DNA of 64,000 nt from an uncultured Bacteroidales bacterium (GTDB taxonomy: Bacteria; Bacteroidota; Bacteroidia; Bacteroidales; Paludibacteraceae). Location: the NCBI GenBank assembly GCA_946411385.1, contig CAMKDV010000008.1, positions 31,492 through 95,491 of the forward strand, read 5' to 3'. Within the stretch, counting starts at the first letter, position 1; the number at the start of each line of letters is the position of its first letter. This document shows positions 9,835 through 54,795 of the stretch, in pieces. The translations under genes were made by a program, and so were the position numbers. The notes below the pieces were generated by a model. That model was given only the letters and a program-made list of their open reading frames with translations. It was not told where the DNA came from and ran no database searches.

Positions 9835-9869
9835 CTCTAATCTCTAAACTCTAAACACTAAACTCTCAA
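9835..9869. repeat. 7-nt periodic array (TCTCTAA ACTCTAA ACACTAA ACTCTCA) filling the rnz-radA spacer
   Basis: Read directly. It fills the whole spacer between the rnz stop (9870) and the radA start (9834). Confidence 0.7.
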
Positions 9870-10652
9870 CTAAATACCGTAGGTCTGGCACTCCTCAGCC
9901 ATGACGGTATTCGGGAAAACGGCTTGCGCCTCCTCAAGGAATAGCTTGTGGTTATCCACACGCGCCGAGTAGTGACCAATGATCAGTTGCTCCACATTCG
10001 CCTTCTTGGCTATCGTGGCTGCCTGTGCGGCGGTTGAATGCATCGTGCCTTTGCAGCGGTCGGCGTATTGCTCAATATAAGTGGATTCGTGATATAGCAC
10101 CTTAACGCCCTCAATGATAGGTACGATCTTCTCCGTGTACTGCGTATCCGAGCAATAAGCATAGCGCTTCACCGGCTCCTGGTCGCGATGATGTTCCGTG
10201 AACAGGAATCCGCAGGTCGGCACTTTGTGCTTCAATGGGATTGTAGTCACCGTCACCGTCCTGTCCTCAAAGATCACTTCCGACTTGCGCGGGTCTATCG
10301 GGTGGAAAATCACCTCGTACGACATTCCCTCGCAATGGTAGTTCAGCCAAGGCATCATCAGTTGCTCCATATCCTTGTGCGCATAGATATGCAGCGGCTG
10401 CGTACGCCCCATCATCGAGAAGGTCGAGATCAGTCCTACCAACCCGAAACAATGGTCGCCATGCAGGTGAGAGATGAAGATGCTGTACAGTCGAGCCGTC
10501 TTCAGCGCCATCCGCCGGAACCATATCTGGCTTCCCTCGCCGCAATCAATCATAAACGACTTGTCACAAATCTCCAGCACCTGACAGGCAGGCGAGTTCT
10601 GAAATGTGGGTAGCGCACTACCACAGCCTAATATGTGCAGTTCGTTGTTCAC
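9870..10652 (-). CDS. rnz: Ribonuclease Z (MBL-fold tRNA 3' endonuclease)
   Basis: 260 aa. LHILGCGSALPT...MIDCGEGSQ...FISHLHGDHCFGL motifs of RNase Z. Shorter than the roughly 300-aa form I remember. Confidence 0.75.
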   Translation of the reverse strand: MNNELHILGCGSALPTFQNSPACQVLEICDKSFMIDCGEGSQIWFRRMALKTARLYSIFISHLHGDHCFGLVGLISTFSMMGRTQPLHIYAHKDMEQLMMPWLNYHCEGMSYEVIFHPIDPRKSEVIFEDRTVTVTTIPLKHKVPTCGFLFTEHHRDQEPVKRYAYCSDTQYTEKIVPIIEGVKVLYHESTYIEQYADRCKGTMHSTAAQAATIAKKANVEQLIIGHYSARVDNHKLFLEEAQAVFPNTVMAEECQTYGI

Positions 10653-17926: not shown

Positions 17927-19303
17927 ATGGATAAACAATCGCAAGCTTTTGTTGACGCCTTTATGGCGGAACTGATCCGTAAGAACCCGGGCGAGAAAGA
18001 GTTTCACCAAGCCGTCCGTGAAGTGGTGGAGAGTGTAGCGCCTATGGTCATGGCGTACCCGTACCTGCGCGAGCAGAAGATCCTCGAACGCATCGTCGAA
18101 CCCGAACGCGTCATTATGTTCCGCGTGCCGTGGATGGACGACGAGGGCGAAGTGCAGATCAACCGCGGCTTCCGTGTCCAGATGAACAGCGCCATCGGTC
18201 CCTACAAAGGCGGTATACGTTTTCATGAGTCTGTCAACCTCAGCATCATGAAGTTCCTCGCCTTTGAGCAGACCTTCAAGAATGCCCTTACTACGCTGCC
18301 TATGGGTGGTGCGAAGGGCGGCTCTGATTTCTCCCCAAGGGGCAAGTCGGATGCCGAAGTGATGCGTTTCTGCCAGTCGTTCATGACCGAACTCCAGCGC
18401 CACATCGGTGCTGATACTGATGTACCTGCCGGCGATATAGGCGTAGGCGGACGGGAGATAGGTTTCCTCTTTGGTCAGTACAAACGCCTGCGCGATGAGT
18501 TCACTGGCACGCTCACGGGCAAAGGACAGCTCTGGGGTGGCTCTCTTATGCGCCCTGAAGCTACCGGCTACGGAGCATGTTACTTTGCCGAAGCAATGCT
18601 CGCCACACGCGGTGAGTCTTTCTCCGGCAAACGCGTTTGTATCTCCGGCGCAGGCAACGTAGCGCAATATGCCGCACAGAAAGCGATGCGTCTGGGTGCC
18701 AAAGTACTCACCCTAAGCGATTCCGATGGCTTCATCTACGATCCCGAAGGACTGACTGAAGAGAAAATGAACTATGTCTTCCAGCTCAAGAACATCCGTC
18801 GCGGACGCATCAAGGAATATGCACAACAATTCCCCGAGGCACAATATTTCCCCGGCGAGCGTCCTTGGCGTATCCCTTGCGACATCGCTATGCCTTGCGC
18901 CACGCAAAACGAAATTGAGAAAGCCGACGCCGAGAACCTCATCCATAACGGTTGTTTCTGCGTCACCGAAGGTGCCAATATGCCTTCTACTCCCGAAGCT
19001 ATCGAAATCTTCCAGAACGCCCGCATCCTCTATAGTCCGGGCAAAGCCAGCAATGCCGGTGGCGTGGCTACCTCCGGTTTGGAAATGACGCAAAACTCCA
19101 TGCGCCTCCGCTGGACTGCCGAAGAGGTTGATCAGCGTCTCCGCACCATCATGGCGGATATCCACGCCGCATGCCTCAAGTACGGCACAGAGCCCGACAA
19201 TCTCAATCCCGACGGCAAACCCTACATCAATTACGTCCGTGGCGCCAACATCGCCGCCTTCATGCACGTCGCCAACGCCATGGTCGAACAAGGTCTGGTA
19301 TAA
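17927..19303 (+). CDS. gdhA: NAD(P)-dependent glutamate dehydrogenase
   Basis: Track ORF 17726-19303 trimmed to ATG 17927 (MDKQSQAFVDAFMAELIRKNPGEKEFHQA). Motifs GPYKGGIRFH and KNALTTLPMGGAKGGSDF. The upstream extension lies in promoter DNA. Confidence 0.9.
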   Translation: MDKQSQAFVDAFMAELIRKNPGEKEFHQAVREVVESVAPMVMAYPYLREQKILERIVEPERVIMFRVPWMDDEGEVQINRGFRVQMNSAIGPYKGGIRFHESVNLSIMKFLAFEQTFKNALTTLPMGGAKGGSDFSPRGKSDAEVMRFCQSFMTELQRHIGADTDVPAGDIGVGGREIGFLFGQYKRLRDEFTGTLTGKGQLWGGSLMRPEATGYGACYFAEAMLATRGESFSGKRVCISGAGNVAQYAAQKAMRLGAKVLTLSDSDGFIYDPEGLTEEKMNYVFQLKNIRRGRIKEYAQQFPEAQYFPGERPWRIPCDIAMPCATQNEIEKADAENLIHNGCFCVTEGANMPSTPEAIEIFQNARILYSPGKASNAGGVATSGLEMTQNSMRLRWTAEEVDQRLRTIMADIHAACLKYGTEPDNLNPDGKPYINYVRGANIAAFMHVANAMVEQGLV

Positions 19304-19314
19304 GTTACTAGTGC

Positions 19315-19421
19315 ATCCGCCATGCATGGCGGATCTACAAAATAATGTATCCGCCAATCTTGGCGGATCTACAGAATAACATATCTACCCCTGAAGAATG
19401 CATCCGCCAATCTTGGCGGAT
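19315..19421 (+). repeat. Three REP-like 20-nt hairpins 5' of the RAYT gene
   Basis: ATCCGCCATGCATGGCGGAT (19315-19334). ATCCGCCAATCTTGGCGGAT (19349-19368 and 19402-19421). All have a G[CT] 5' flank and a C plus A-rich 3' tail. Confidence 0.85.
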
Positions 19422-20624
19422 CAAAAAAAAGTGCCAACCGATTGGTATACATATTGGAAAGAACGCGGAGGCCTATTGAGTAACGCTCATCGTCCATGCA
19501 ACACCTGGAAGGATTACAAATCCCCCGGGGTATACCTTATTACAATTGTCACGCACGCCCGCAAGCGCGCGTTCGGCGAACTGAACAATAGTCTCTCCGC
19601 ACCCGCTGTTGTATTGACCAATCTTGGTCAATATATTGAGAAAGCCTGGCTACAGACCTTTGAGAAACAATCCGCCCGTGGGCGTCATATCCACTCGCTT
19701 GGCTATCAAGTCATGCCGGACCATTTCCATGGTATCCTACAAGTAGAGCGCCCTATGGATGTACTCATCGGCACTATCATTCGCGATTTCAAAGCCGTTT
19801 GCACGAAAGAGTACCGCATCCTGTATCCGCCAATTTTGGCGGATGATATCGATAGAGCGTATCTCGCCCGCTCTTCCCGCAAGCAGCGCGAGGATTATTA
19901 CGCCGCTCATGGTATAGAACCGCTCTTTGATGACAACTACGATGATTCCATCTGTTACCGCAAAGGGCAGTTAGAAAATATCATCAACTACGTACAGGAC
20001 AATCCGCGTCGTGCCATTATGCGTGCGCTCTATCCGGATCTCTTCCAACGCCGCCAACATATCACCATCGACGGACAGGATTTTGCCGCTTACGGAAATC
20101 TCTTCTTGTTAAAGCGCCCGTGGAAAGAACAAGTCTTCTGTCACCGATGGCTAATGCGAGATGGTCAGCGCGACTACAACACTCGCTATGAAACCACCGA
20201 CGCTTTTCATCAAGAACGCGCTACATGGATCCAAGCCGCTAAAGATGGCGCTGTTCTGGTCACGCCGGGCATCTCTAAAGGCGAGCAACAACTGGTCAAG
20301 GATTGTATCGAACAAGCCCTCCCGCTTATCCATCTGCAGAAAGAGCCCATCCGCGAGGGCTGGAATCCGGAAAAGCGGCGTCATCAACTCTGCGAGATGG
20401 GACAGCTTCTCATCCTGTCGCCGTGGCAACTGACCGAAATGGACAACGTCAACGGCATTCCCGCAGATACCGACTACAGCCAATTCCATAACATGAACAC
20501 CCTTGCCGCCCAAATATGCAAGAACAGTCTCTGCCCTACAATTAGTAGTATCCGCCATGCAATTAGTAATATCCGCCATGCAATGCATGAGTATCCGCCA
20601 ATCTTGGCGGATCAAAAGGAATAA
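19398..20624 (+). CDS. REP-associated tyrosine (HUH/Y1) transposase-like protein with a roughly 190-aa C-terminal extension
   Basis: 408 aa. YKSPGVYLITIVTHARKRAF, HUH motif MPDHFHGIL, catalytic-Tyr helix ENIINYVQDNPRRA. The annotated ATG (19398) and the last 10 codons lie inside REP copies. An in-frame GTG at 19431 is an alternative start. Confidence 0.75.
   Translation: MHPPILADQKKVPTDWYTYWKERGGLLSNAHRPCNTWKDYKSPGVYLITIVTHARKRAFGELNNSLSAPAVVLTNLGQYIEKAWLQTFEKQSARGRHIHSLGYQVMPDHFHGILQVERPMDVLIGTIIRDFKAVCTKEYRILYPPILADDIDRAYLARSSRKQREDYYAAHGIEPLFDDNYDDSICYRKGQLENIINYVQDNPRRAIMRALYPDLFQRRQHITIDGQDFAAYGNLFLLKRPWKEQVFCHRWLMRDGQRDYNTRYETTDAFHQERATWIQAAKDGAVLVTPGISKGEQQLVKDCIEQALPLIHLQKEPIREGWNPEKRRHQLCEMGQLLILSPWQLTEMDNVNGIPADTDYSQFHNMNTLAAQICKNSLCPTISSIRHAISNIRHAMHEYPPILADQKE
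19613..19632 (+). repeat. REP-like perfect hairpin inside the RAYT CDS (ATTGACCAATCTTGGTCAAT)
   Basis: Shares the invariant core CCAATCTTGG and the GT 5' flank with the flanking REPs. Three substitutions per arm are all mutually complementary. Confidence 0.7.
19825..19844 (+). repeat. REP copy inside the RAYT CDS (ATCCGCCAATTTTGGCGGAT), in frame as YPPILAD
   Basis: 9-bp perfect stem with arms identical to the flanking REPs. Lies between the HUH motif and the catalytic Tyr. Confidence 0.85.
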
Positions 20625-20647
20625 TGCATCCACCATGCATGGTGGAT
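20550..20647 (+). repeat. REP cluster 3' of or overlapping the RAYT stop: two half-sites plus two full hairpins
   Basis: ATCCGCCATGCA at 20550-20561 and 20571-20582. ATCCGCCAATCTTGGCGGAT at 20593-20612. ATCCACCATGCATGGTGGAT at 20628-20647 (compensated G>A / C>T). Confidence 0.85.
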
Positions 20648-31662: not shown

Positions 31663-33123
31663 TTACTTGCGGATACCCTGAACGTTGAACATCTCACCGT
31701 TGCGCTCAATCATCAGCTCACCGTTCACGAGACGTTTAACGGCCTTGATCTCTGCCTCTACGTTGTCTACGGCATCGCCTACATTGTAGGTGAACAGAGC
31801 ATATACGCCGGCGGTCGTCATGTCGCCATCGTCGGTCATACCTGCTGCCAAAGCCACATAGTCACCTGCCTCGGGAGCGCTGCTGAACAGGTCAACAAAC
31901 GTAAATGACTGATTACCACTGTAGGTAACGTAAGCCAGATAGCCGTAGTAAGCATAAGTAGCAATCCAACCGGAAATCTCGTCATCAACAGAAGCCTGGG
32001 TCAGATCCGACTGATATTTGTCATAATCCTCTTTCGACTCTACCGTAAAGAAGTAGTTGTCGCTGTTCGTCGTGCTCACGCTTACAATACCGTTGGCATA
32101 TGCCAGCGTAATCTGGTTATCCGACTGAGGAACAACCTTCGGTGCACCACCCAGATCCAGGATATATACAACACCGTCCTTGCCGATCAGCGTACCCGTG
32201 ATGTGCGGGTTACCGTCGTTGTCAAGAGTCAGCGTGAACTCAAGCTCTTTGATCTTAACTTGAGCAAGAGTAGCATACGAAGTACCTACATAGAACATGG
32301 TGTAGTCCTCGTCCATCATTTCCAGTGTGTACGTACCGGCTGCTTCCGTTACTTCGTCATAGTTCGACAGCGTAATGTAAACAGTGCTATCGGCATTCAT
32401 GCCGTAGAGCTGCCACCAGCCTTGGTCTGCTACATGGTCAAGCCAGATCAAATCGTTGATTACCACGTTGATCGTCTCACCCGTCAGCTCAAACGGAGCA
32501 TCCTCAAGATCAACCACATAGTCGCAGTCGAAGTAAGTTCCGCAGTACTCCGAATGCACTACAGAGTGGTAGTACTTCTCATAGTCGTAAGCAAGCACTA
32601 CAGGGAACTCAGCGTTGATCTCCATAGCTTCCTCCTCCGAGTTCATGTCCTCGGAAACGATGGAATAGTACGGAATACCGGCTACCTGCTGCGTGTAAGC
32701 TACAGTGAACGCACCGCTGATTGCCTCCAGCGTGTCAGTACCGTTGATCAAAATTGCCACGTTCGTCGTGTCAATCTCCATGTTGGCTGCTACCAGGTGA
32801 GTCTCGTCACCACCCGCATACACTACATAACCCAGGAGAGTCGTATCTGCACTATACAGGTCAATCTCCCACGTACCGTCGAGGTAGCAAGCTGTTGCCA
32901 TAGCTACGCTCGTTACCGATACGTCTTGCTTCGCGGCAACCACCTTGTGAGATGCCGACAGCAACGGCATACGGTGTGTTTGGCTTGCAATCTCTGCACG
33001 TACAGCGGCCATACGGGCTGCACGCTCAGCTGCTTGACTCTTGTCTGCCTTAACCAACGAAGGCACAGCATTTGCACTCATTACAAGCGCGCATGCCATA
33101 ATCAAAGTAAAAAACTTTTTCAT
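31663..33123 (-). CDS. Exported hypothetical protein with conserved C-terminal motif, upstream partner of the giant protein
   Basis: Start taken at ATG 33123 (MKKFFTLIMACALVMSANA); the track start 33135 adds 4 codons. C-terminus KRLVNGELMIERNGEMFNVQGIRK. No recognisable enzymatic motif. Confidence 0.65.
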   Translation of the reverse strand: MKKFFTLIMACALVMSANAVPSLVKADKSQAAERAARMAAVRAEIASQTHRMPLLSASHKVVAAKQDVSVTSVAMATACYLDGTWEIDLYSADTTLLGYVVYAGGDETHLVAANMEIDTTNVAILINGTDTLEAISGAFTVAYTQQVAGIPYYSIVSEDMNSEEEAMEINAEFPVVLAYDYEKYYHSVVHSEYCGTYFDCDYVVDLEDAPFELTGETINVVINDLIWLDHVADQGWWQLYGMNADSTVYITLSNYDEVTEAAGTYTLEMMDEDYTMFYVGTSYATLAQVKIKELEFTLTLDNDGNPHITGTLIGKDGVVYILDLGGAPKVVPQSDNQITLAYANGIVSVSTTNSDNYFFTVESKEDYDKYQSDLTQASVDDEISGWIATYAYYGYLAYVTYSGNQSFTFVDLFSSAPEAGDYVALAAGMTDDGDMTTAGVYALFTYNVGDAVDNVEAEIKAVKRLVNGELMIERNGEMFNVQGIRK

Positions 33124-33346
33124 ACAATAAATCATTAATTTGTTTGTTTGTATTATTGTAGGTTCGGCTTAAGCCCTTTCACGGCAAAAACCATTGTTTG
33201 TTTTTCCTTATAAATGTTTTTTATGTTTTTTGTTCTAACCACTATCCCCATTCCATTCTTATATATAACATGCCACCGGCACAAATGACCTCCATCATTC
33301 GTGCCTTTCCTGGTGAGGATTTAAGCCTTGCTGACGCAAAGTGGCG

Positions 33347-33378
33347 CAAAGTTACGACTTTTTTTTCACATTTGCAAA
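33347..33378 (-). promoter_or_regulatory. Bacteroidota-type promoter for the 486-aa / giant-protein operon
   Basis: The minus strand reads TTTG-caaatgtgaaaaaaaagtcg-TAACTTTG. The -33 box lies within ATTTGCAAAT. Confidence 0.5.
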
Positions 33379-33482
33379 TCTTTTTCACAATTTGCTAACA
33401 AAATGTTACATTTTACCCGACTTTTGCTTACACTGAGAAACATTTTGCCACATCCACATATCAATCCAGGTTTCATCGACCA

Positions 33483-33571
33483 TTGTCGAGTCACTATCGA
33501 GTCATTATCGAGTCATATACAGGTCATCTACAGTCCATCTACGGGTCATCTACGGTCCAACTACGAGTCTA
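33483..33571. repeat. Eight-unit 11-bp phased degenerate array (TCGAGTCAyTA x3 then TCTACrGkyCA x4-5)
   Basis: GTCA/GTCC cores at 33490, 33501, 33512, 33523, 33533, 33545, 33555 and 33567 (spacing 10-12, mean 11). Confidence 0.75.
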
Positions 33572-33610
33572 AACCCGATTTTTTAAACATTTTTAATATT
33601 TTCGACGCTT

Positions 33611-33644
33611 GTTTTTTGGGTTATTTTGGGTAATTTTGGACTAA
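33611..33644 (+). repeat. Phased TTTTGGR decamer element (TTTTGGGtta TTTTGGGtaa TTTTGGActaa)
   Basis: Three T4-G2-3 units at 10-bp spacing. Related copies at 24174-24206 and (reverse) 56321-56351. Confidence 0.6.
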
Positions 33645-33735
33645 TCCTAATCCTCCGCGCGACCTTATTGCCGAACGCGAATTTGCTACCTCAACGCAAA
33701 AAAATCAACAAAATTTCAAAAAAACGCGCCCACAA

Positions 33736-33767
33736 CTTGCAAATGTCATTTTTTTTTTGTATCTTTG
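33736..33767 (+). promoter_or_regulatory. Bacteroidota-type promoter for the OmpA-family gene
   Basis: CTTG-caaatgtcattttttttttg-TATCTTTG. 36 nt (33737-33772) are 35/36 identical to the M16 peptidase promoter at 52342-52377 (reverse). Confidence 0.55.
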
Positions 33768-33859
33768 TAGGCTTTTTGAGATAAACTCAAAAGTACAGAC
33801 CCGCAACGGGACACACATTGCTTAAAAAACCGCATAACTATCGGGACAAATTATCGTAT

Positions 33860-35692
33860 ATGCAAACATCAAAGATACTTTTAGCCGTCTTCACGGCAAT
33901 AGCCATCGGCAATACCGCCATGGCGCAGACAGCAGACGCAGATCAGTACCGCCAGCAGCAAGCTGCAGCACGCAAAGATGCTCAACGCGCACGACAAGCC
34001 GAGCGTGCCGATTATGCCAAGCACTCCAATGCCAACTCCGAAGTGGCACAAGAGACTGCCGCCTATCTCGCGGAGATGGCACGCGTGCAGAAACACAACA
34101 ACGAAGTCGCCGACTACATGACCCGCGACATCGCACACCGCCTCGCCGTATGGCTGGACCTCGGAGCGTGCTCACGCATGGATCACATAGGCGTGAGGGG
34201 AAGCGAAGGCTTCAATATCGGCGGAGGAGGAGCACTCGGCATTGGCTACCAGCTGCGCCGAAGCAAGTTCCTCTTCACCACAGGACTGGAGTTCCGCAGC
34301 ATCAACTACAACAGCGTTTCCTTGATTGATCCTTCCCAACCGCTAAAAAGGGTAGACTATTACCTCGGCTATCTCCAACTGCCGCTCATGTTCGGTATGG
34401 AGTTGCCGAACTGGTACTGGCAGCTTGGCGGCAAGGTAGGCTACAAAGTCATGGATGTCAAGAGCAGCCTTAGTTCGGCTTTGCGCGTTGCGCCGGCATT
34501 CGAGATAGGTATGAACTTCGACCGTTGGTCGCGTCCGCAACTGCCTGCCGGTCAACAGATGACTCCTGCACAGCGCCGCCAATTCCGTATGCACTACAAG
34601 CTTGCCTTGTTCGGCGAGTGCGGTCTGATTGACAAGCCCAATCCTGCCGCCGGTACCACACGGTTCAAAGAGGATCTGACGGTCGGCTTCAAGTTCACCG
34701 CTGCCTATCAGTTCCGCCGTCAGCAGAAAAAGATGGAACCGCTCCCCACGCGCCCGCGGCCCGCTATGACCGTCCTTGTTAAGGATGCCAACGGACGACC
34801 GGCTGAAGGTGTCATGGTCGTTGCGCACGACCGCGTGTCCAACGGCAAGTCCTACGGCACTACCCTGCCCGATGGCAAGGCCGTCATCAATCTTGCACGA
34901 GGCGAATATGACCTCCGAGCCTATCGCAACGGCAAGATGGCTGAACCGCTACATATCGAGCATCTCGACCTCAACGGCGATGCTTACGAACTTATCCTCA
35001 ATCAAGAGGACGACACCCCGGCTGAGGTACGCATCGTTGATTATGAGGAGGTCACCCTCGATCCTAATCTCCCGCGCCTCGTAGGCCGCGTCTGTGATGC
35101 CGAGACAGGCGCTCCGCTTAACGCAGGCGTACGCGTTGGCAACTGGATTGATACCACCGCTCTCTATCATGGCACAGCCAACAGCCGTGGCATCTATGTT
35201 ACACGCCTCTACCGAGGCGATTATAGCGTACATGTGCGCAAAGCAGGCTATATGCCGCTCATCGATGCGATCCACTTCGAGCAAGACTCTGTCATCCTCA
35301 AGCTCAAACCCATCCGAGTCGGCACAGCTGCCAAAGTGAAAGACCTGTTCTTTGTCAAAGACAAAGCTACCCTGCTGCCCGAATCGGAAACGGCACTGGC
35401 TAACCTTGCCATGTTCCTCCGCCAGAACCCGGATGTGTGCATCAAGCTCACCGCACATACCGACAACCAGGGCGACGAGGATCGCCTCATCCGCATGTCC
35501 ATGGCGCGCGCCCGAATGATTCGCCGTAACCTCGTCAACCGAGGTATTGATATCAACCGCATCGAGATCGACGGCATGGGCGGCACACAACCCGTCGCTG
35601 ACAACGAATCCGAATACGGTCGCGCCCTCAACCAGCGCATCGTCATGGAAATAACCTCCCTCACCGGTCCCGCACCCGCCACGGAGGAATAA
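33860..35692 (+). CDS. OmpA-family outer-membrane protein (beta-barrel + two carboxypeptidase-regulatory-like domains + OmpA C-terminal domain)
   Basis: Start taken at ATG 33860 (MQTSKILLAVFTAIAIGNTAMAQ); the track start 33818 is TTG. C-terminal peptidoglycan-binding block LTAHTDNQGDEDRLIRMSMARARMIRRNLVNRGI...NQRIVMEI. Confidence 0.8.
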   Translation: MQTSKILLAVFTAIAIGNTAMAQTADADQYRQQQAAARKDAQRARQAERADYAKHSNANSEVAQETAAYLAEMARVQKHNNEVADYMTRDIAHRLAVWLDLGACSRMDHIGVRGSEGFNIGGGGALGIGYQLRRSKFLFTTGLEFRSINYNSVSLIDPSQPLKRVDYYLGYLQLPLMFGMELPNWYWQLGGKVGYKVMDVKSSLSSALRVAPAFEIGMNFDRWSRPQLPAGQQMTPAQRRQFRMHYKLALFGECGLIDKPNPAAGTTRFKEDLTVGFKFTAAYQFRRQQKKMEPLPTRPRPAMTVLVKDANGRPAEGVMVVAHDRVSNGKSYGTTLPDGKAVINLARGEYDLRAYRNGKMAEPLHIEHLDLNGDAYELILNQEDDTPAEVRIVDYEEVTLDPNLPRLVGRVCDAETGAPLNAGVRVGNWIDTTALYHGTANSRGIYVTRLYRGDYSVHVRKAGYMPLIDAIHFEQDSVILKLKPIRVGTAAKVKDLFFVKDKATLLPESETALANLAMFLRQNPDVCIKLTAHTDNQGDEDRLIRMSMARARMIRRNLVNRGIDINRIEIDGMGGTQPVADNESEYGRALNQRIVMEITSLTGPAPATEE

Positions 35693-35696
35693 CCGC

Positions 35697-35898
35697 ATCG
35701 ACCAATCTTGGGCGATAAAAAAAAGCATCGACCAATCTTGGGCGATTAAAAAAAGCATCGACCAATCTTGGGCGATAAAAAAAGCATCGACCAATCTTGG
35801 GCGATAAAAAAAAGCATCGACCAATCTTGGGCGATAAAAAAGGATCGACCAATCTTGGGCGATAAAAAGGGATCGACCAATCTTGGGCGATAAAAAAA
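35697..35898 (+). repeat. Seven-copy tandem array of a REP-related hairpin plus A-tract (unit GCATCGACCAATCTTGGGCGAT-A7-8, period 28-30 bp)
   Basis: Hairpins at 35697, 35727, 35757, 35786, 35816, 35844 and 35872 (each 20 nt). Core CCAATCTTGG is identical to the RAYT-flanking REPs. The array starts 5 nt after the OmpA-family stop and ends 38 nt before the pckA ATG. Confidence 0.9.
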
Positions 35899-35935
35899 CA
35901 CCAGAATTAAAACAAACAACAAAAATACAAACAAA

Positions 35936-37540
35936 ATGAAAGCATTAGATCTTACTCAGTACGGCATCACGGGCGCTACCGTGAAAGCGTACAATCCCTC
36001 CTACGAGGAACTCTTCAAAGAGGAGATGAACCCTGCACTCACCGGCTATGAGAAAGGACAACTCACCGAACTCGGCGCAGTCAACGTAATGACGGGTATC
36101 TACACCGGCCGTTCACCTAAGGACAAATACATCGTCATGGACGAGAACTCCAAGAACACCGTTTGGTGGACCACCGACGAGTACAAGAACGACAACCACC
36201 CCATGTCGGAAGAGGTTTGGGCAAAGATTAAAGACCTCGCTGTGAAAGAACTCTGCAACAAAGAGTTGTACGTAGTGGACGCTTTCTGCGGCGCTAACAA
36301 AGACACCCGCATGAACGTTCGTTTCATCATGGAGGTAGCTTGGCAGGCACACTTCGTTAAGAACATGTTCATCCAGCCCAGCGAGGAAGAGCTCAAAGAT
36401 TTCAAGCCCGACTTCGTTATCTACAATGCTTCCCTCGCAAAGGTTGAGAACTACAGAGAGCTCGGACTCAACAGCGAGACATGCGTTGCTTTCAACACCA
36501 CCAGCCGTGAGCAGGTTATCCTCAACACCTGGTATGGAGGCGAGATGAAAAAAGGTATGTTCTCCATGATGAACTACTATCTGCCGCTCAAGGGTATCGC
36601 TTCGATGCACTGCTCCGCTAACACCGATATGCAAGGCAAGAACACCGCTATCTTCTTTGGTCTCTCCGGTACCGGCAAGACCACCCTTTCTACCGACCCG
36701 AAACGTCTCCTCATCGGTGACGACGAGCACGGATGGGATGACAATGGCGTCTTCAACTTCGAAGGTGGCTGCTATGCCAAGGTTATCAAGCTCGACAAAG
36801 AGTCGGAGCCTGACATCTACAACGCTATCCGCCGCAACGCCCTTCTCGAGAACGTTACCGTGGACGCTGAAGGCAAGATCGACTTCAACGACAAGTCCGT
36901 TACCGAGAACACCCGCGTCAGCTATCCTATCAACCACATCGAGAAGATCGTTCGCCCCGTTTCCGCTGGTCCGGCTGCTGAGAACGTTATCTTCCTCTCC
37001 GCTGACGCCTTCGGCGTTTTGCCTCCTGTATCTATCCTTACTCCCGAGCAGACGAAGTACTACTTCCTCTCCGGCTTTACCGCTAAGCTCGCAGGTACAG
37101 AGCGTGGTATCACCGAGCCTACGCCTACCTTCTCCGCTTGCTTCGGACAGGCTTTCCTGGAGCTCCACCCCACCAAATATGCTGAGGAACTCGTTAAACG
37201 AATGGAGAAATCCGGCGCTAAGGCTTATCTCGTGAACACCGGCTGGAATGGTACGGGCAAACGTATCTCTATCCGCGACACACGTGGTATCATCGACGCT
37301 ATCCTTGGTGGTGCTATCAAGACCGCTCCTACCAAGCATATCCCGTTCTTTGACTTCGAGGTTCCGACCGAACTGCCGGGCGTTGATCCTAACATCCTCG
37401 ATCCGCGCGACACCTACGCTACCCCGGCTGAGTGGGAAGTTAAGGCTAAAGACCTCGCCGGTCGCTTCATCAAGAACTTCGTTAAGTACGAAGGCAATGC
37501 CGCTGGTAAAGCTCTCGTTGCCGCTGGCCCGAAGCTCTAA
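35936..37540 (+). CDS. pckA: Phosphoenolpyruvate carboxykinase (ATP)
   Basis: 534 aa. [13 protein letters not shown] kinase-1a motif, [14 protein letters not shown]. Typical ATP-PEPCK length. Confidence 0.92.
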
Positions 37541-37560
37541 TGTAAGAATCGACTTTTTTC

Positions 37561-37629
37561 ATTTGTCAATTGTAAACCAATCGTCAATCAATTGTCAATT
37601 GTAAATCGTCAATCGTAAATTGTAAATGA
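37561..37629. repeat. 7-nt periodic array (ATTGTCA ATTGTAA ATCGTCA ATCGTAA ATTGTAA) in the pckA-aspS spacer
   Basis: Read directly. Ends 4 nt before the aspS ATG. Confidence 0.7.
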
Positions 37630-37633
37630 CTTT

Positions 37634-39004
37634 ATGATTTCATTACATGAAATAACCACAACAGACACGCTCGCCGGTGCAAAAGCCGGCGACGTGGTTG
37701 CTGTGAATGGCATGATCCACAACGTCCGCGTTACCAAGTGGGGCGGTTTCATCATTCTGCGCAAGGCTAACGGCCTCTTGCAGACGGTGGTGGACAATAG
37801 CGAATCCAAGTTCTTTGACGAAGTTGGCAACGCCATCGCTTTGGCTGACCTCTGCCGCGAGATGGCTGTCACCATCACCGGTAAGGTAGGCGACGCCAAG
37901 ATCAAAGACCCCGCTGTCTATTACAACACCATCGAGCTTGCTGTACAGGAGGTTCACGTTCTCTCACGTCCTACCACCGCTGAGGTAGTCGACATGAATG
38001 CCCTGAAGTTCGGCGACGAAGAGACCCTTCTCCGTTTCAAGTTCGACAACCGACAGGTTACCCTCCGCAACCCGCGCGACATGGGCATCCTCAAGGTGCA
38101 GTCCACCATCGCCAAGGCGTTTGCAGATTTCCTCACGGATAACGGCTTCACGCAGATCTACACCCCGAAGATTGTCTCCGAAGGCGCCGAAGGTGGTGCT
38201 AACGTCTTCAAGATGGATTACTTCGGCAAACAAGTCTACCTCGCTCAGTCGCCGCAGTTCTACAAGCAGATTGGTGTAGGCGTCTACGAGCGCGTCTTCG
38301 AGATCGCTCCCGCCTATCGCGCTGAGAAGCATAACACCAGCCGACACCTCAACGAGTACATCTCACTCGACGTCGAGATGGGCTTTATCCGTGGTCAGGA
38401 AGATGTTATGCAACTCGAAGCACGTCTGCTGCAACACATCATCAAGACCGTCAGCGAGAAATGCGCTCACGAGCTTAACCTCCTTGGCGCTACTCTGCCC
38501 GTCCTACCGCACGAAGTGCCGGCATGGAAACTCTCGGAAGTGCACGAGATTCTCTTCAATAACCACCTCTGCGAAACCGACCACCGCGGCGAGGATGACC
38601 TCGCTCCGGAAGAGGAACGCGCTATATGCAAGTACGCATTGGAGACCTACGGCTCGGATTTCGTCTTCGTGACCCATTTCCCGAGCGAGCACCGTGCTTT
38701 CTATGCAATGGACGATCCGGAAGATCCTACTCTGACATTGAGCTTCGACCTCCTGATGCGCGGATTGGAGATTACCTCCGGAGGTCAGCGTATACACAAG
38801 GAGCAAGACTACCGCGACAAGATGATCAAGCGTGGCATGAATCCTGATAATTTCCGCTTCTACCTCGATACCTTCAAAAACGGCATGCCGCCGCACGGAG
38901 GTTTCGCTATCGGTCTGGAGCGCATCACGGCTTGCTTCCTCGGCATCAACAACGTCAAGGAATGCTCCATGTTCCCGCGTGACATCAACCGCGTCGCTCC
39001 CTAA
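37634..39004 (+). CDS. aspS: Aspartate--tRNA ligase, archaeal/eukaryotic type (class IIb, possibly non-discriminating)
   Basis: 456 aa. N-terminal OB fold, motif 2 FRAEKHNTSRHLNEY, motif 3 and C-terminus PPHGGFAIGLERI...MFPRDINRVAP. The size is far below the roughly 590-aa bacterial type. Confidence 0.75.
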   Translation: MISLHEITTTDTLAGAKAGDVVAVNGMIHNVRVTKWGGFIILRKANGLLQTVVDNSESKFFDEVGNAIALADLCREMAVTITGKVGDAKIKDPAVYYNTIELAVQEVHVLSRPTTAEVVDMNALKFGDEETLLRFKFDNRQVTLRNPRDMGILKVQSTIAKAFADFLTDNGFTQIYTPKIVSEGAEGGANVFKMDYFGKQVYLAQSPQFYKQIGVGVYERVFEIAPAYRAEKHNTSRHLNEYISLDVEMGFIRGQEDVMQLEARLLQHIIKTVSEKCAHELNLLGATLPVLPHEVPAWKLSEVHEILFNNHLCETDHRGEDDLAPEEERAICKYALETYGSDFVFVTHFPSEHRAFYAMDDPEDPTLTLSFDLLMRGLEITSGGQRIHKEQDYRDKMIKRGMNPDNFRFYLDTFKNGMPPHGGFAIGLERITACFLGINNVKECSMFPRDINRVAP

Positions 39005-39007
39005 AAA

Positions 39008-39075
39008 AATGACAAATGACAAATGACAAATGACAAATATCAATTGTAAATTGTAAATTGTTAAATTGTCAATAA
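39008..39075. repeat. 7-nt periodic array (AATGACA x4, ATTGTAA x2-3, variants) 3' of aspS
   Basis: Read directly. Lies between the aspS stop and the terminator hairpin. Confidence 0.75.
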
Positions 39076-43571: not shown

Positions 43572-43626
43572 ACTTTCAACATTTAACTATCGAACTTCTT
43601 TCACCTTTCAACTTTCACCTTTCAAC
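43572..43626. repeat. 7-nt periodic purine-rich array in minus-strand sense (AAGTTGA AAGGTGA AAGTTGA AAGGTGA AAGAAGT ...) upstream of TPR-CHAT
   Basis: Read directly. Fills the spacer between the CoA-transferase stop (43627) and the CHAT gene start (43555). Confidence 0.75.
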
Positions 43627-45123
43627 TTATCTGAGGTAATTCTCCCACTTCGTGTTACGCATATCGCCGCTCTTCATGAACTCCTCATGCATAGCGAACG
43701 CCAGCGACAGGTTATGCTGCGTCTGACCGTGTTTTGCAAATTTGAGGTAGTCACGCAGCATCTCTCTGTACTCCGGAGCAACGCAGTTGTTGATGATCTC
43801 CTCGGCACGCTGACGCGGACTCTTGCCACGCAAGTCGGCTACACCCTGTTCGGTTACAATCACTTTTACCGAGTGCTCCGAGTGATCCATGTGCGTTACC
43901 ATCGGCACGATCGACGATATAGCGCCGTTCTTGGCCGTCGAGGCGGTAGTGAAGATGCTCAGATATGCGTTTCGTGCAAAGTCGCCCGAACCGCCTATAC
44001 CGTTCATCATCTTTACGCCCGTCACGTGCGTCGAGTTCACGTTGCCGTAGATATCTGCCTCCAGCGCCGTGTTGATAGCTATCAGACCAAGTCGGCGGAT
44101 GATCTCCGGATTATTCGACGTCTCTTGCGGACGGAGCAGCAGCTTGTCGCGATAGAAATCCAGGTCAGCCAGCACTTCCGCCATCTTGCTCTCCACCAGT
44201 CGCAGCGAGCAGCCCGAAGCGAACTTGCAATGACCGGCCTTTATCAGGTCTATCACGCTGTCCTGAACAACTTCCGAGTACATTTCAAACGGCGGGATAT
44301 GCGGGTTCTTGCCCAACTCGCCCAATACTGCGTTCGCCACGTTACCTACACCCGACTGAATAGGCAAGAACGATGCAGGTATCCTACCGGCTTTCAGTTC
44401 AGCCTCCAGGAACGCCGCTACGTTGGCGCCGATCTTGGCAGTCGTCTCATCCACCGGCGTGAAGGCGGGAATCTCGTTCGGACGGTTCGTCTTCACTACT
44501 GCGGCAATCTTCTTGGGATCTACCTTCAGATGGTCGCTTCCGCAACGGTCGGAGGGTTTGTAGATAGGTATCTCTTTGCGGTAAGGAGGATCAAGCGGTT
44601 CGTACAAGTCGTGCATGCCGCGCATCGATGCGGGGAACATCTCGTTGAGCTCGATGATGATCTTGTCTGCCATGTTACAGATTGTAGGCATGATGCCTAT
44701 ACCTGCGGCAGGCACGATCGTACCGTCCTCGCCTACATACGATGCCTCGATAACCGCCCATTTGGGTTTCGGTAGGAATCCGTAACGCAAGTCTTGAGCC
44801 ATGTGGCTGAGGTGCATGTCAAAGTAGTGTGTACCTTCGGCATTGATCTCCTCGCGCATCGACTTGTTCGACTGGTACGGCGTACGGAACTCCACGGCAT
44901 GGGCTCGTGCCAACGCACCGTCACAGCTGTCACCCATCGACGCACCGGTCTCCAAACCTACGCGGAAAGGTTTGCCCTCTGCGTGCAGCTTCTCAGCCCG
45001 TTGCGCCAAGGCGAACGGCACCGACTTGGGCACACCGGTGGCGGTAAAACCACCCATACCCAAGACGTCACCATTCTGTATCAATTCAGCAGCCTGTTCG
45101 GCTGTCATGAAAGGAAGTGCCAT
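43627..45123 (-). CDS. Acetyl-CoA hydrolase/transferase-family enzyme (succinyl-CoA:acetate / propionyl-CoA:succinate CoA-transferase type)
   Basis: 498 aa. MTAEQAAELIQNGDVLGMGGFT N-terminus and MMNGIGGSGDFARNA block typical of the family. Confidence 0.8.
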   Translation of the reverse strand: MALPFMTAEQAAELIQNGDVLGMGGFTATGVPKSVPFALAQRAEKLHAEGKPFRVGLETGASMGDSCDGALARAHAVEFRTPYQSNKSMREEINAEGTHYFDMHLSHMAQDLRYGFLPKPKWAVIEASYVGEDGTIVPAAGIGIMPTICNMADKIIIELNEMFPASMRGMHDLYEPLDPPYRKEIPIYKPSDRCGSDHLKVDPKKIAAVVKTNRPNEIPAFTPVDETTAKIGANVAAFLEAELKAGRIPASFLPIQSGVGNVANAVLGELGKNPHIPPFEMYSEVVQDSVIDLIKAGHCKFASGCSLRLVESKMAEVLADLDFYRDKLLLRPQETSNNPEIIRRLGLIAINTALEADIYGNVNSTHVTGVKMMNGIGGSGDFARNAYLSIFTTASTAKNGAISSIVPMVTHMDHSEHSVKVIVTEQGVADLRGKSPRQRAEEIINNCVAPEYREMLRDYLKFAKHGQTQHNLSLAFAMHEEFMKSGDMRNTKWENYLR

Positions 45124-45155
45124 TTAATTCGTAATTTTTAATTTTTAATTTCGAA
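45124..45155. repeat. 7-nt periodic A/T array (TAATTCG TAATTTT TAATTTT TAATTTC) in the fba / CoA-transferase spacer
   Basis: Read directly. Its ends also form a 7-bp inverted repeat: TAATTCG inside the array and CGAATTA at 45152-45158, which extends 3 nt past this feature into the fba stop codon. Confidence 0.65.
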
Positions 45156-52240: not shown

Positions 52241-52346
52241 ATCTTGATGGTTTTATTGTTCGTTTTATTGTTTCGTTTTGTTGCTTCGTTTTGTTGCTTC
52301 GAACTTTTAGCGTCATCCCATTGCGCCCTATTTCGCAATTTGCCTA

Positions 52347-52378: not shown

Positions 52379-52483
52379 TATTCTCTCAAAAAAATTCAAT
52401 ATTCAAATGATTTTTGCGAGCAAATCCGCCACTCATCCTCTCGGAACCCCTATAAATAGGGACTTGCAACAGACTTATATTGG

Positions 52484-52525
52484 GTGATTATTGCGTGATT
52501 ATTGTGTGGTTATTGCGTGATTGCC
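52484..52525. repeat. 11-bp tandem array (GTGATTATTGC GTGATTATTGT GTGGTTATTGC GTGATTGCC)
   Basis: Read directly in the 590-bp M16/rpiB divergent intergenic region. Confidence 0.75.
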
Positions 52526-52729: not shown

Positions 52730-52810
52730 GGAAAATGAAAAGTTAAAAATGAAAGGGGAAAGGAAAGTTAAAAATGAAAGGGGAAAGGAATTTCAAAAAC
52801 GAAAGAAATA
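52730..52810 (+). repeat. Purine-rich GAAAG/GAAAA leader repeats including a perfect 24-nt duplication
   Basis: AGTTAAAAATGAAAGGGGAAAGGA at 52741-52764 and 52766-52789. The surrounding sequence has 7-nt AAAnnnn phasing. Confidence 0.75.
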
Positions 52811-53297: not shown

Positions 53298-54707
53298 ATG
53301 GAAAAACTTAACGTGAAATTGCATATCTTAGCTCCGTTGACAGCCCTTGTGGTGCTGCTGATGTGGTTTGTGCCGACATCCTTTTTCGGCATTGACGGTC
53401 TGACGGTGGTACAACAGCGTACTATCGCCATCTTCTGCTATGCAGCCCTGATGTGGATGTTCGAGATCATCCCCGCCTGGGCTACCTCGGTTACCACTAT
53501 CGTCTTCTTGTTGCTGGCGGTTTCCAACAAAGGTCTGACCAACCCCGACATGGGTACTTTGGTTAACTTCAAGGAACTGATGGCAGCTTTTGCCGACCCG
53601 ATCATCATGCTCTTCTTGGGCGGTTTTGTACTGGCTATTGCAGCAAGCAAAGTAGGTCTGGACATAGTACTGGCGCGCGTGATGCTCAAGCCTTTCGGCA
53701 CGAACCCAAAATGGGTGCTGCTGGGCTTTTTGACGCTGATCAGCGTGATGTCGATGTTCATGAGTAATACGGCTACGGCAGCCATGATGCTGGCGTTCCT
53801 GGCTCCTGTGTTGCGTACGTTGCCTGCAGATGGCGGCGGTCGTGTCAGCCTGGCTATGGCTATACCTATCGCAGCCAACATCGGCGGTCTGGGTACGCCT
53901 ATCGGAACGCCTCCGAACGCTATCGCCATCGGTCAGCTGGCTTCGCTGGACATCAACATCGGCTTCGGTGCGTGGATGATCCGTATGGTGCCCGTAGTCA
54001 TCATCATGATTCTGTTCTCATGGTGGCTGCTCATGTTCCTCTTCCCCTTCAAGGCAAAGGATGTGAAGATCGTCATCGAGCCGGATGAAGAACACAAGAT
54101 CGACTGGCAGTTCTGGGTAGTGACCATCACGTTCATCGCTACCATTCTGCTGTGGATGACTGGTGAGCTGACTCACCTGAACTCGAACGTGGTTGCCCTC
54201 ATCCCGTTTGCCGTGTTTGCTCTGGTTGGCATCTTCAAGCGCGAAGATTTTGCCAAGATTGACTGGCATGTACTGTGGATGGTAGCCGGTGGTTTTGCCA
54301 TCGGAACGGCTCTGAACAAGACCGGTCTTGCCGCAGCACTGGTTGAGGCTATTCCTTTCGGAAACTGGTCGGCATTGGTTGTACTGATCACAGCCGGTCT
54401 GCTGGGCTGGTTGCTCAGTAACTTCATCGCCAACTCGTCGGCAGCCAACTTGCTCGTGCCCATCCTGGCGGTAGTAGGTACGGCTATGAGCGAGCAGCTC
54501 ACAGCCTTCGGCGGCGTAACAACGCTGCTGGTATGTGTAGCCGCTTCCACCTCGTTTGCCATGCTGCTGCCTATCTCCACCCCGCCGAACGCTATCGCTT
54601 GCTCTACCGGTCTGATCAAAACCAACGACATGACCAAGGTTGGACTGATTGTAGGCTTGCTGGGTATAGCCATCTCGTACGCCGTTATCCTTTTATTCCC
54701 GTTCTAA
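53298..54707 (+). CDS. DASS/SLC13-family anion:sodium symporter
   Basis: 469 aa, polytopic. Two SNT-type hairpin motifs (FMSNTATAAMM and SNFIANSSAANLLVP). PPNAIA is repeated twice. Confidence 0.8.
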   Translation: MEKLNVKLHILAPLTALVVLLMWFVPTSFFGIDGLTVVQQRTIAIFCYAALMWMFEIIPAWATSVTTIVFLLLAVSNKGLTNPDMGTLVNFKELMAAFADPIIMLFLGGFVLAIAASKVGLDIVLARVMLKPFGTNPKWVLLGFLTLISVMSMFMSNTATAAMMLAFLAPVLRTLPADGGGRVSLAMAIPIAANIGGLGTPIGTPPNAIAIGQLASLDINIGFGAWMIRMVPVVIIMILFSWWLLMFLFPFKAKDVKIVIEPDEEHKIDWQFWVVTITFIATILLWMTGELTHLNSNVVALIPFAVFALVGIFKREDFAKIDWHVLWMVAGGFAIGTALNKTGLAAALVEAIPFGNWSALVVLITAGLLGWLLSNFIANSSAANLLVPILAVVGTAMSEQLTAFGGVTTLLVCVAASTSFAMLLPISTPPNAIACSTGLIKTNDMTKVGLIVGLLGIAISYAVILLFPF

Positions 54708-54795
54708 GGTGAAAGGTGAAAAGTGAAAGGTGAAAGGTGAAAGGTGAAAGGACGCTACGCTACAGGAAAAGTGAAAAGTGAAAGGAATTTGACAA
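54706..54795 (+). repeat. 7-nt periodic purine-rich array (AAGGTGA x6 with variants, then AAAGTGA x2) filling the DASS-porin spacer
   Basis: Read directly. Begins in the DASS stop codon and runs to the porin ATG (54796). Confidence 0.85.

Follow-up and report, generated by a model that had tools for sequence, protein, structure and literature searches.

A probable REP cluster, reiterated head-to-tail and variable among strains, between an OmpA-family gene and pckA in a rumen Bacteroidales bacterium

Higgins and Newbury are said to have found that the repetitive extragenic palindromic (REP) sequences of Escherichia coli protect the upstream segment of the mRNA. In the Proteobacteria, REPs are reiterated in tandem together with their flanking DNA, including arrays that flank gene clusters of Thauera, and in the GTAG-1 families amplification and clustering appear to be linked; GT[AG]G and CGTC are the tags of REP super-families (Di Nocera et al., 2013, PMC3733652). 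According to the account of Liang et al. (2015) given in PMC12306157, an E. coli REP lying within 15 nt of a stop codon stalls ribosomes and lowers the translation of the upstream gene. Among the tyrosine transposases associated with REPs (RAYTs, or TnpA-REP), subclass 2.4, frequent in Bacteroidetes, has REP copies inside the tnpA-REP gene as its hallmark, and the REPs of subclass 2.6, also from Bacteroidetes, are devoid of GT[AG]G and have a weak structure (Quentin et al., 2018, PMC6006769). These systems are compared here with a seven-copy array of a 20-nt hairpin found in 64,000 nt of DNA (the window) from an uncultured Bacteroidales bacterium of the Paludibacteraceae (NCBI GenBank assembly GCA_946411385.1, contig CAMKDV010000008.1, positions 31,492 to 95,491 of the forward strand). 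The array occupies the spacer between a gene of the OmpA family and pckA, and it is probably a strain-variable cluster of a Bacteroidales REP/RAYT family rather than a purpose-built control element of pckA.

As the original prediction had it, the array is made of seven head-to-tail copies with periods of 30, 30, 29, 30, 28 and 28 nt, and two approaches agree on this point. Tandem Repeats Finder reports at 35695-35898 a repeat of period 30 with 7.0 copies, 94% matches and a score of 346 (its alternative reading is a 59-nt double unit with a score of 350), and the 20-mer ATCGACCAATCTTGGGCGAT is present there seven times with zero mismatches, starting at 35697, 35727, 35757, 35786, 35816, 35844 and 35872. 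By chance, about 0.01 matches of this 20-mer would be expected in the window, and none of 100 shuffles equalled the observed number. Each unit consists of a short tag (GC, GG or GGG), the 20-mer and an A-run of 5 to 8 nt, and the joined units rebuild 35695-35898 exactly. The flanks were also described correctly at the outset: the first stem starts at the fifth nucleotide after the stop codon of the OmpA-family gene and 37 nt separate the array from the ATG of pckA. The array and its hairpins are the following:

35695..35898, + strand: array of seven REP units, head-to-tail, from Tandem Repeats Finder and from the exact rebuilding out of units
35697..35716, + strand: hairpin 1, ATCGACCAATCTTGGGCGAT, with tag GC and tail A8, after a 4-nt gap from the OmpA-family stop
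35727..35746, + strand: hairpin 2, identical 20-mer, tag GC, tail TA7
35757..35776, + strand: hairpin 3, identical 20-mer, tag GC, tail A7
35786..35805, + strand: hairpin 4, identical 20-mer, tag GC, tail A8
35816..35835, + strand: hairpin 5, identical 20-mer, tag GC, tail A6
35844..35863, + strand: hairpin 6, identical 20-mer, tag GG, tail A5
35872..35891, + strand: hairpin 7, identical 20-mer, tag GGG, tail A7, followed by the pckA leader

Within the array, substitutions are found at none of the 140 hairpin positions versus 4 of the 64 positions of tags and spacers (Fisher p = 0.009). This invariance of the hairpin could stem from recognition by a RAYT, from homogenisation between units or from function. 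The 20-nt unit is a short imperfect palindrome, as expected of a REP (20-40 nt), with the fold ((((.(((....))).)))) and a free energy of -5.5 kcal/mol as DNA and -6.0 kcal/mol as RNA (RNA z = -1.7); its antisense RNA reaches -6.9 kcal/mol. The minimum-free-energy structure of the whole array region has -57.8 kcal/mol (z = -4.35), with an almost empty centroid and many competing pairings between units, and the 37-nt A-rich leader of pckA is unpaired in it.

A comparison of the copy number across the contigs of relatives, as had been proposed, gave 0, 1 or at least 2 units versus the seven of the window. Where the OmpA-family protein is 68-70% identical (L074-L077), the spacer to pckA measures 28 nt and holds no hairpin; at 84% identity (L070) it measures 110 nt and is filled by ATGACGA-type repeats, again with no hairpin; in L158 (SRR33917146), whose OmpA-family protein belongs to the same 90%-identity cluster, it carries a 9-mer repeat (CATCTAGCA-like) and no hairpin. 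L071 (SRR17418359; OmpA-family protein 98% identical) has exactly one unit, which runs into the same leader and pckA. The contig of L072, which encodes the same OmpA-family protein as L071, stops after unit 1 and A8 and fits an array of which only one unit is visible, and that of L073 (81% identical) stops inside unit 2, so that at least two units are present. As read from these contigs, the array is polymorphic among relatives (0, 1, at least 2 or 7 units). Since the pair formed by the OmpA-family gene and pckA is kept in relatives without the array, pckA is independent of it; the array would thus be dispensable, with a copy number that changes from strain to strain. The dedicated role in pckA expression that had been envisaged earlier does not agree with a spacer whose content shifts from 28 nt to other repeats, to a single unit and to several. 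In unit 1 of L073 (5847-5866) the loop is inverted (AAGATT for AATCTT) within the asymmetric stem, which resembles a hairpin loop-inversion event; three further copies with the A.G stem and a flipped loop were seen outside L073.

The hairpin belongs to a dispersed family. When the pattern ATCGNCCAATCTTGGNCGAT was scanned against one genome per prokaryotic species, 62 loci were obtained, 53 of them in 25 species-level metagenome-assembled genomes (MAGs) of rumen Bacteroidales/Paludibacteraceae, with up to 7 loci per genome; the single matches in unrelated phyla were 9, versus 8.7 expected by chance. The two free positions of the pattern are overwhelmingly A and G in the Bacteroidales loci, and the A.G mismatch is therefore canonical; neither it nor the swapped stem pair is a decay of the neighbouring REP. 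The mismatch was counted in 57 copies (fetched loci plus window), and a separate, widely dispersed subfamily has the exact 20-mer, mismatch included, as its canonical form. According to a crude gene caller, the dispersed copies are mostly intergenic and many of them have a stop codon 3-16 nt away; a manual count on the same calls gave both orientations relative to genes (about 12 sense and 9 antisense non-redundant loci), so that an orientation bias, which would favour a role at the RNA level, was not found. At the 5' end of most copies a loose tag of the type (T/A)G(T/C) is recognizable, most commonly TGT, TGC, AGC and AGT, with TCT or TCC in others, and neither GTAG nor CGTC is present in the listed 5' flanks. 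The original prediction had counted the A-tract as part of the unit: it is indeed present, as A5-8, in all seven units of the array, but it is not general to the dispersed copies, only a minority of whose listed 3' flanks open with an A-run, and an A-run intrinsic to the REP unit was accordingly rejected. A second small hairpin that is conserved, GGCTCC-NCA-GAGCC, stands 5' of some of the dispersed copies (L010 3380-3426 and 5185-5231; L024 630-678), and in L010 two such composite copies bracket an open reading frame (ORF) of 438 aa with unknown function.

Direct reiteration is a habit of the family as a whole. In 0.96 Mb of fetched loci, 24 REP clusters were found, all of them direct, with 2-5 copies and locus-specific periods of 33-100 nt, and none of the 24 contains inverted pairs of the type seen in bacterial interspersed mosaic elements (BIMEs) or in REP doublets forming hairpins (REPINs). 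The array of the window is the largest of the clusters and has the shortest period (28-30 nt), because its spacer is an A-run only. The opinion that its uniform and direct units set it apart from scattered REPs had thus to be abandoned, since every cluster of the family is direct, including the arrays beside RAYT genes: four units of period 36 lie directly 5' of a RAYT gene in L081 and three units are 5' of another in L080. Another cluster, in L052, has a period of 33 with five matched units and one degenerate copy. A four-unit array of period 40 in L080 (844-983) extends from 4 nt after a stop codon to about 25 nt before the start codon of gdhA; in the window, gdhA (ATG at 17927) is without an array and is preceded by a canonical TATCTTTG promoter. 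At the end of the arrays there is often a companion hairpin in which the stem is unchanged and AATCTT gives way to a palindromic loop, ATATAT, ATTTAT or ATGCAT (L009, L011, L036, L052, L055 and L056; window 19315 and 20628). There may thus be two types of hairpin that differ in role, in a loose parallel to Y and Z REPs in E. coli.

The relationship of the array unit to REPs, as originally proposed, is supported, and a RAYT-type gene with sister hairpins (ATCCGCC...GGCGGAT) lies 15 kb away. Gene and hairpins form a REPtron that spans 19.3-20.65 kb:

19398..20624, + strand: RAYT-like gene, predicted to encode a Y1 HUH nuclease with a DprA-like C-terminal domain; the true coding sequence is probably about 19437-20540
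19315..19421, + strand: left cluster of the REPtron, three direct hairpins (ATCCGCC-ATGCAT/AATCTT-GGCGGAT)
20593..20647, + strand: right cluster of the REPtron, two direct hairpins

The hairpins flanking the RAYT-like gene, ATCCGCCAATCTTGGCGGAT, and those of the array have the core CCAATCTTGG in common and are distinguished by a compensatory swap from C-G to G-C at stem position 4 and by the A.G mismatch at position 5, exactly as first described; the REPtron hairpin is more stable as RNA (-13.9 kcal/mol versus -6.0 kcal/mol for that of the array). The array unit is a member of the same REP superfamily as the REPtron hairpins. In-frame REP copies are also present within the RAYT-like gene, at 19613-19632 and 19825-19844, the second of which encodes a conserved PPILAD/QPxLAD motif. 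The RAYT-like ORF stays below the cut-offs of both Pfam Y1_Tnp (E = 0.052, 14.1 bits, cut-off 23) and NCBIfam REP_Tyr_transpos (E = 2.5e-9, 37.2 bits, cut-off 80). Its protein has 1551 homologues, mostly of about 376 aa, the named ones coming from Paludibacteraceae/Bacteroidales MAGs and being annotated as hypothetical, and in an alignment of 12 of them MPDHFHG (HUH motif) and YVxDNPRRA (Tyr motif) are invariant. Searches of the PDB by sequence, with the protein and with its profile, gave no matches, and only the structure-based search succeeded. In an AlphaFold model with a confidence (pLDDT) of 80, the N-terminal half matched by Foldseek the IS200/IS605 transposase 2xm3 (3e-5) as well as 4er8 (2.4e-4), a complex of the E. 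coli RAYT with REP, and the conserved C-terminal half (about 190 aa) matched DprA (3uqz, 4ljl) and the DprA-like ShosA (8zva) with E of about 1e-3. The model suggests a Y1-HUH nuclease fused to a Rossmann-like domain that binds single-stranded DNA, and with the HUH and Tyr motifs placed on a predicted IS200-like fold the 19.4-kb gene can be regarded as a RAYT.

Another enzyme than this RAYT may act on the array hairpin. Homologous RAYT loci from rumen metagenomes were collected (80 fetched, with hairpins tabulated for the first 43). In the nine close ones (77-89% identical) the adjoining hairpins are of the ATCCGCC type only, on both sides of the gene in seven of the nine and with several direct arrays, and the RAYT of the window may therefore not act on the array variant. 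The stem of the array type is found in a clade of 40-47% identity as an antisense intragenic copy (ATCGACC-GATATC-GGGCGAT; L023, L078-L086), and a generic hairpin search in the flanks of 14 loci of this clade returned nothing consistent.

The array lies in what appears to be an operon, whose parts are listed below:

33760..33767, + strand: -7 box TATCTTTG, the probable promoter of the operon, 100 nt 5' of the OmpA-family ATG
33860..35692, + strand: OmpA-family gene with CarboxypepD_reg and OmpA domains, the upstream cistron (Pfam OmpA 3.8e-15, CarboxypepD_reg 1.3e-12)
35899..35935, + strand: A-rich, unstructured leader of pckA, identical over its whole length in the one-unit allele L071
35936..37540, + strand: pckA, ATP-dependent phosphoenolpyruvate carboxykinase, the downstream cistron (Pfam PEPCK_ATP 1.3e-203)
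37634..39004, + strand: class II aminoacyl-tRNA synthetase-like (aaRS-like) gene (tRNA-synt_2), 3' of pckA in every relative examined

A promoter scan with a sigma-70 model found nothing within the array; this model is unsuited to Bacteroidetes. The primary sigma factor of this group recognizes TAnnTTTG as its -7 box, with or without a TTTG at -33, and A-rich leaders without a Shine-Dalgarno sequence are the norm (PMC7366714); the leader of pckA fits such initiation regions, and only its last 30 nt or so are shared between the window and the no-REP allele L158. The only TAnnTTTG boxes on the + strand within 33000-36000 are at 33631 and 33760, the latter in a typical TTGCAAAT...T-run context and followed after 100 nt by the ATG (33860) at which the 610-aa homologues of the OmpA-family protein also begin; its gene ends with a TAA at 35690-35692. 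From 33768 to the ATG of pckA (up to 35935) the + strand holds no TAnnTTTG, which extends the earlier remark that none lies between the array and pckA. The same -7 box is found at -100 in both L070 and L071, and in L074 it lies at -60; in four of the five alleles scanned no TAnnTTTG occurs between the start of the OmpA-family gene and the ATG of pckA; in the fifth, L077, the sole box is inside a called ORF of 661 aa, read as an N-terminally over-extended call. A canonical box is thus present 5' of the OmpA-family gene in all the alleles. The gaps in L074, 28 nt between the OmpA-family gene and pckA and 15 nt between pckA and the aaRS-like gene, are typical of an operon. With a box 5' of the OmpA-family gene and none between the two genes, pckA is most likely transcribed through the array; judging from motifs and spacing, the OmpA-family gene, pckA and the aaRS-like gene would form one transcription unit, with the array transcribed as intercistronic RNA, and pckA would have no promoter of its own at this site because it is the second gene of the operon. 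Among the alternatives offered in the original prediction, transcription through the array is hence the best reading, and a role dedicated to pckA expression is unlikely in a spacer that is hypervariable in close relatives.

Other structures were looked for in the region. The hairpins are not reported as intrinsic terminators by a terminator scan on either strand, and each hairpin of the sense strand is followed by an A-run and not by a U-tract. Rfam covariance models gave no match at E <= 1 on either strand of 33000-38000. Planar curvature of the DNA through phased A-tracts was rejected: at 28-30 bp, the period misses three helical turns (10.5-bp repeat) by about 1.5-3.5 bp on the short side, and the bends would therefore not add up in one plane.

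The surroundings of pckA show a marked asymmetry. On its 3' side, the order pckA-tRNA-synt_2 is kept in all relatives examined. On its 5' side, a SecDF_P1_head-like gene lies 21 nt away in L063-L068, and in L069 there is an fn3 gene followed by 348 nt with a canonical TAATTTTG promoter; compared with 33136-35935 of the window, the relatives L063-L069, whose pckA is 93-94% identical, thus bring to three the kinds of 5' neighbour (SecDF_P1_head-like, fn3 or OmpA-family). Since the 5' neighbour varies and the 3' neighbour is fixed, the 5' side of pckA is a recurrent rearrangement point. The array as a scar of a synteny breakpoint was rejected, the adjacency of the OmpA-family gene and pckA being conserved both with and without the REP. 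Matches of 611-696 aa to pckA, considered as N-terminal extensions through arrays, are really mis-assembled internal duplications. Short tandem repeats of 7-13 nt, specific to each locus and often starting a few nucleotides after a stop codon, fill spacers between genes of the same strand and 3' spacers. In the window they are found at 37566-37627, 39007-39073, 54706-54751, 9835-9871, 43598-43628 and 45123-45151, and further at 33481-33569, 52250-52301, 52478-52522 and 52732-52805; in relatives they replace the REP array between the OmpA-family gene and pckA (L070 2191-2300, L158 1888-1996). Examples are AAATGAC x4.6, AATTGTA x4-5, AAGGTGA x6.6 and CTCTAAA x5.3.

The history that would account for the array as a REP cluster is the following. 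One unit (short 5' tag, 20-nt imperfect hairpin and A-run) would have entered the spacer 4 nt past the stop of the OmpA-family gene, and the segment of 28-30 nt would then have been reiterated head-to-tail up to seven copies. Growth may have occurred through slippage in replication or through unequal exchange among the units, or else by single-strand cleavage or excision of the RAYT type followed by rejoining beside an existing hairpin, and both routes fit the data. The first is favoured by the richness of the intercistronic spacers of this lineage in locus-specific short tandem repeats, others of which fill the same spacer in relatives; the second would explain the constant array-specific spacers and the direct orientation of all clusters (a model discussed in PMC3733652). 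Transcription from the TATCTTTG box at 33760 would run through the OmpA-family gene, the array, pckA and the aaRS-like gene. Seven weak hairpins (about -6 kcal/mol each) between A-runs could slightly hinder the release of ribosomes at the OmpA-family stop, and, as has been demonstrated for the REPs of E. coli, they could make the upstream cistron decay more slowly in the 3'-to-5' direction. The effect on expression, which is the weakest step of the explanation, would be at most modest and secondary, as expected from weak stems and a lack of conservation.

Several observations weigh against this reading. The hairpin of the array type (ATCGACC...GGGCGAT) flanks no RAYT gene in the 80 loci fetched. 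As for the source genome, no dispersed copy is present outside the array and the REPtron within the 64 kb of the window. Seven copies at the shortest period make the array an outlier within its own family, and hairpins that are more conserved than their spacers are compatible with selection for function. Co-transcription is deduced from sequence motifs and spacing only, a non-canonical promoter or one for an extracytoplasmic function (ECF) sigma factor is possible within or 3' of the array, and the relative L069 has a canonical promoter of its own for pckA.

Some of these points would suit a selected intercistronic regulator, in which the string of hairpins sets the expression ratio of the OmpA-family gene to pckA by way of mRNA stability that differs between segments, of processing, or of ribosomes stalled at the upstream stop codon, and the copy number acts as a strain-specific rheostat. 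Such a regulator is unlikely. It would agree with a first stem 4 nt past the stop, within the 15 nt at which E. coli REPs stall ribosomes, with the many family copies at 3-16 nt from stop codons, with invariant hairpins among variable spacers, with a copy number that differs by strain and with the similar array that a relative has right before gdhA, another central metabolic gene. However, the array is missing in most of the relatives that have the same gene pair, unrelated repeats occupy the same spacer and the single RNA hairpins, at -6.0 kcal/mol (z = -1.7), are weak. Moreover, the hairpins of the family stand in both orientations to transcription (about 12 sense and 9 antisense), which a purely RNA-level function does not predict. 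A bolder proposal would see here a REP system of its own, not described before, in rumen Bacteroidales, with hairpins that multiply only head-to-tail, driven by a RAYT fused to a DprA-like domain for binding single-stranded DNA, which excises units of hairpin and spacer and re-inserts them by an existing hairpin, and with arrays at intercistronic junctions (at pckA and, in a relative, at gdhA) that are copy-number-tunable modulators of operon polarity for genes of central metabolism; taken as a whole, it is quite unlikely.

It is very unlikely that the array, or the DNA just 3' of it, supplies a promoter or an activating element of curved DNA to pckA. The high expression expected for pckA, the A-tracts every 28-30 bp, which could bend DNA, and the dedicated canonical pckA promoter of L069 speak for it; yet the + strand of array and leader is devoid of TAnnTTTG, the period is out of helical phase, and the alleles with a 28-nt spacer and no hairpin, which must still express pckA, have no room for a promoter. 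On the reverse strand, each unit reads as a hairpin followed by T5-8, and the antisense RNA hairpin is the slightly more stable one (-6.9 kcal/mol). Within the pckA leader, the minus strand has a TATTTTTG box (35920-35927) that is aimed into the array from 35927, probably by chance in a T-rich complement. A battery of minus-strand terminators (hairpin plus U7-8), shielding the OmpA-family gene from antisense transcription that comes out of the complement of the pckA leader, is nevertheless scarcely credible: the stems, of 4 + 3 bp around a mismatch, fail the terminator scan, the minus-strand box is what the complement of so A-rich a leader yields by chance, this leader is the same in relatives without the array, and no minus-strand gene here requires termination. 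The chance that the array is an over-expanded or mis-joined repeat of the assembly is close to nil. Short-read assemblies of the locus do break at the array (L072, L073) and one sample gives a single unit (L071), but the junction between unit 1 and unit 2 was recovered independently in L073, and the L071 contig has a 31-mer spanning both unique flanks, so that its one-unit form is a genuine allele rather than a collapsed array; these two facts together make an artefact unlikely. In addition, the units differ in A-run length, in one T and in the GG/GGG tags, which are unique anchors for an assembler, and direct arrays of the family are common across independent assemblies.

Read as a REP cluster, the array has a meaning beyond this locus. 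The odd upstream region of pckA is explained by the place of the gene as second in an operon combined with a strain-variable REP cluster. A REP family of uncultured rumen Paludibacteraceae is documented, with a conserved mismatched stem, strictly direct clusters and an unusual RAYT that has a DprA-like domain, which is useful for annotation and for grasping why short-read assemblies break at such sites. If it were true that such arrays tune operon polarity, they would offer a simple and naturally variable handle on the expression of central-carbon genes.

Compared with known systems, the array has in common with CRISPR arrays direct repeats of comparable length that are partly palindromic and follow each other at regular intervals; this candidate was rejected, as the "spacers" are A5-8 with a tag of 2-3 nt, without unique sequence, and no cas genes lie nearby. 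With the REPINs of Pseudomonas it would share RAYT-associated REP units that multiply in genomes, but REPINs are inverted pairs, which are absent here. With the REPs and BIMEs of E. coli it shares extragenic hairpins at gene ends or between cistrons, a conserved imperfection of the stem and probably a cognate Y1-HUH enzyme. In the BIMEs of E. coli, Y and Z REPs take turns in opposite orientations, whereas the units of the array are all direct. With about 35-40 nt the REPs of E. coli also surpass the array hairpin in length, and they are stronger; their functions would apply here by analogy. By that analogy, only two of the published REP functions would fit the geometry of the array, namely protection of the upstream mRNA and ribosome stalling near the stop (at a gap of 4 nt in this case). 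The REPtrons of subclasses 2.4 and 2.6 also have a RAYT gene flanked by its REPs, with Bacteroidetes as a main host, and in-frame intragenic REPs are found in subclass 2.4 as in the RAYT-like gene of the window; the REPs of subclass 2.6, like the array unit, lack the tag and are weakly structured. In its motifs the RAYT of the window departs from both, with DHFH/YVQDNP versus NH[IFV]H/YIxNNP in 2.4 and NH[LIV]H/YIH[QN]NP in 2.6, and its RAYT further differs from both in its length of about 376 aa, its DprA-like C-terminal domain of about 190 aa and its scores below the Pfam and NCBIfam cut-offs. Finally, the head-to-tail REP clusters that Di Nocera et al. (2013, PMC3733652) describe for the GTAG-1 families of Pseudomonas and Thauera share with the array short imperfect palindromes, a probable association with a RAYT, direct reiteration together with flanking DNA and the placement of arrays beside gene clusters, while the array is distinguished from them by its host, a rumen Bacteroidales from another phylum, by a tag close to (T/A)G(T/C) instead of GTAG/CGTC, by an exclusively head-to-tail arrangement, by the A-run as spacer and by a period of 28-30 nt.

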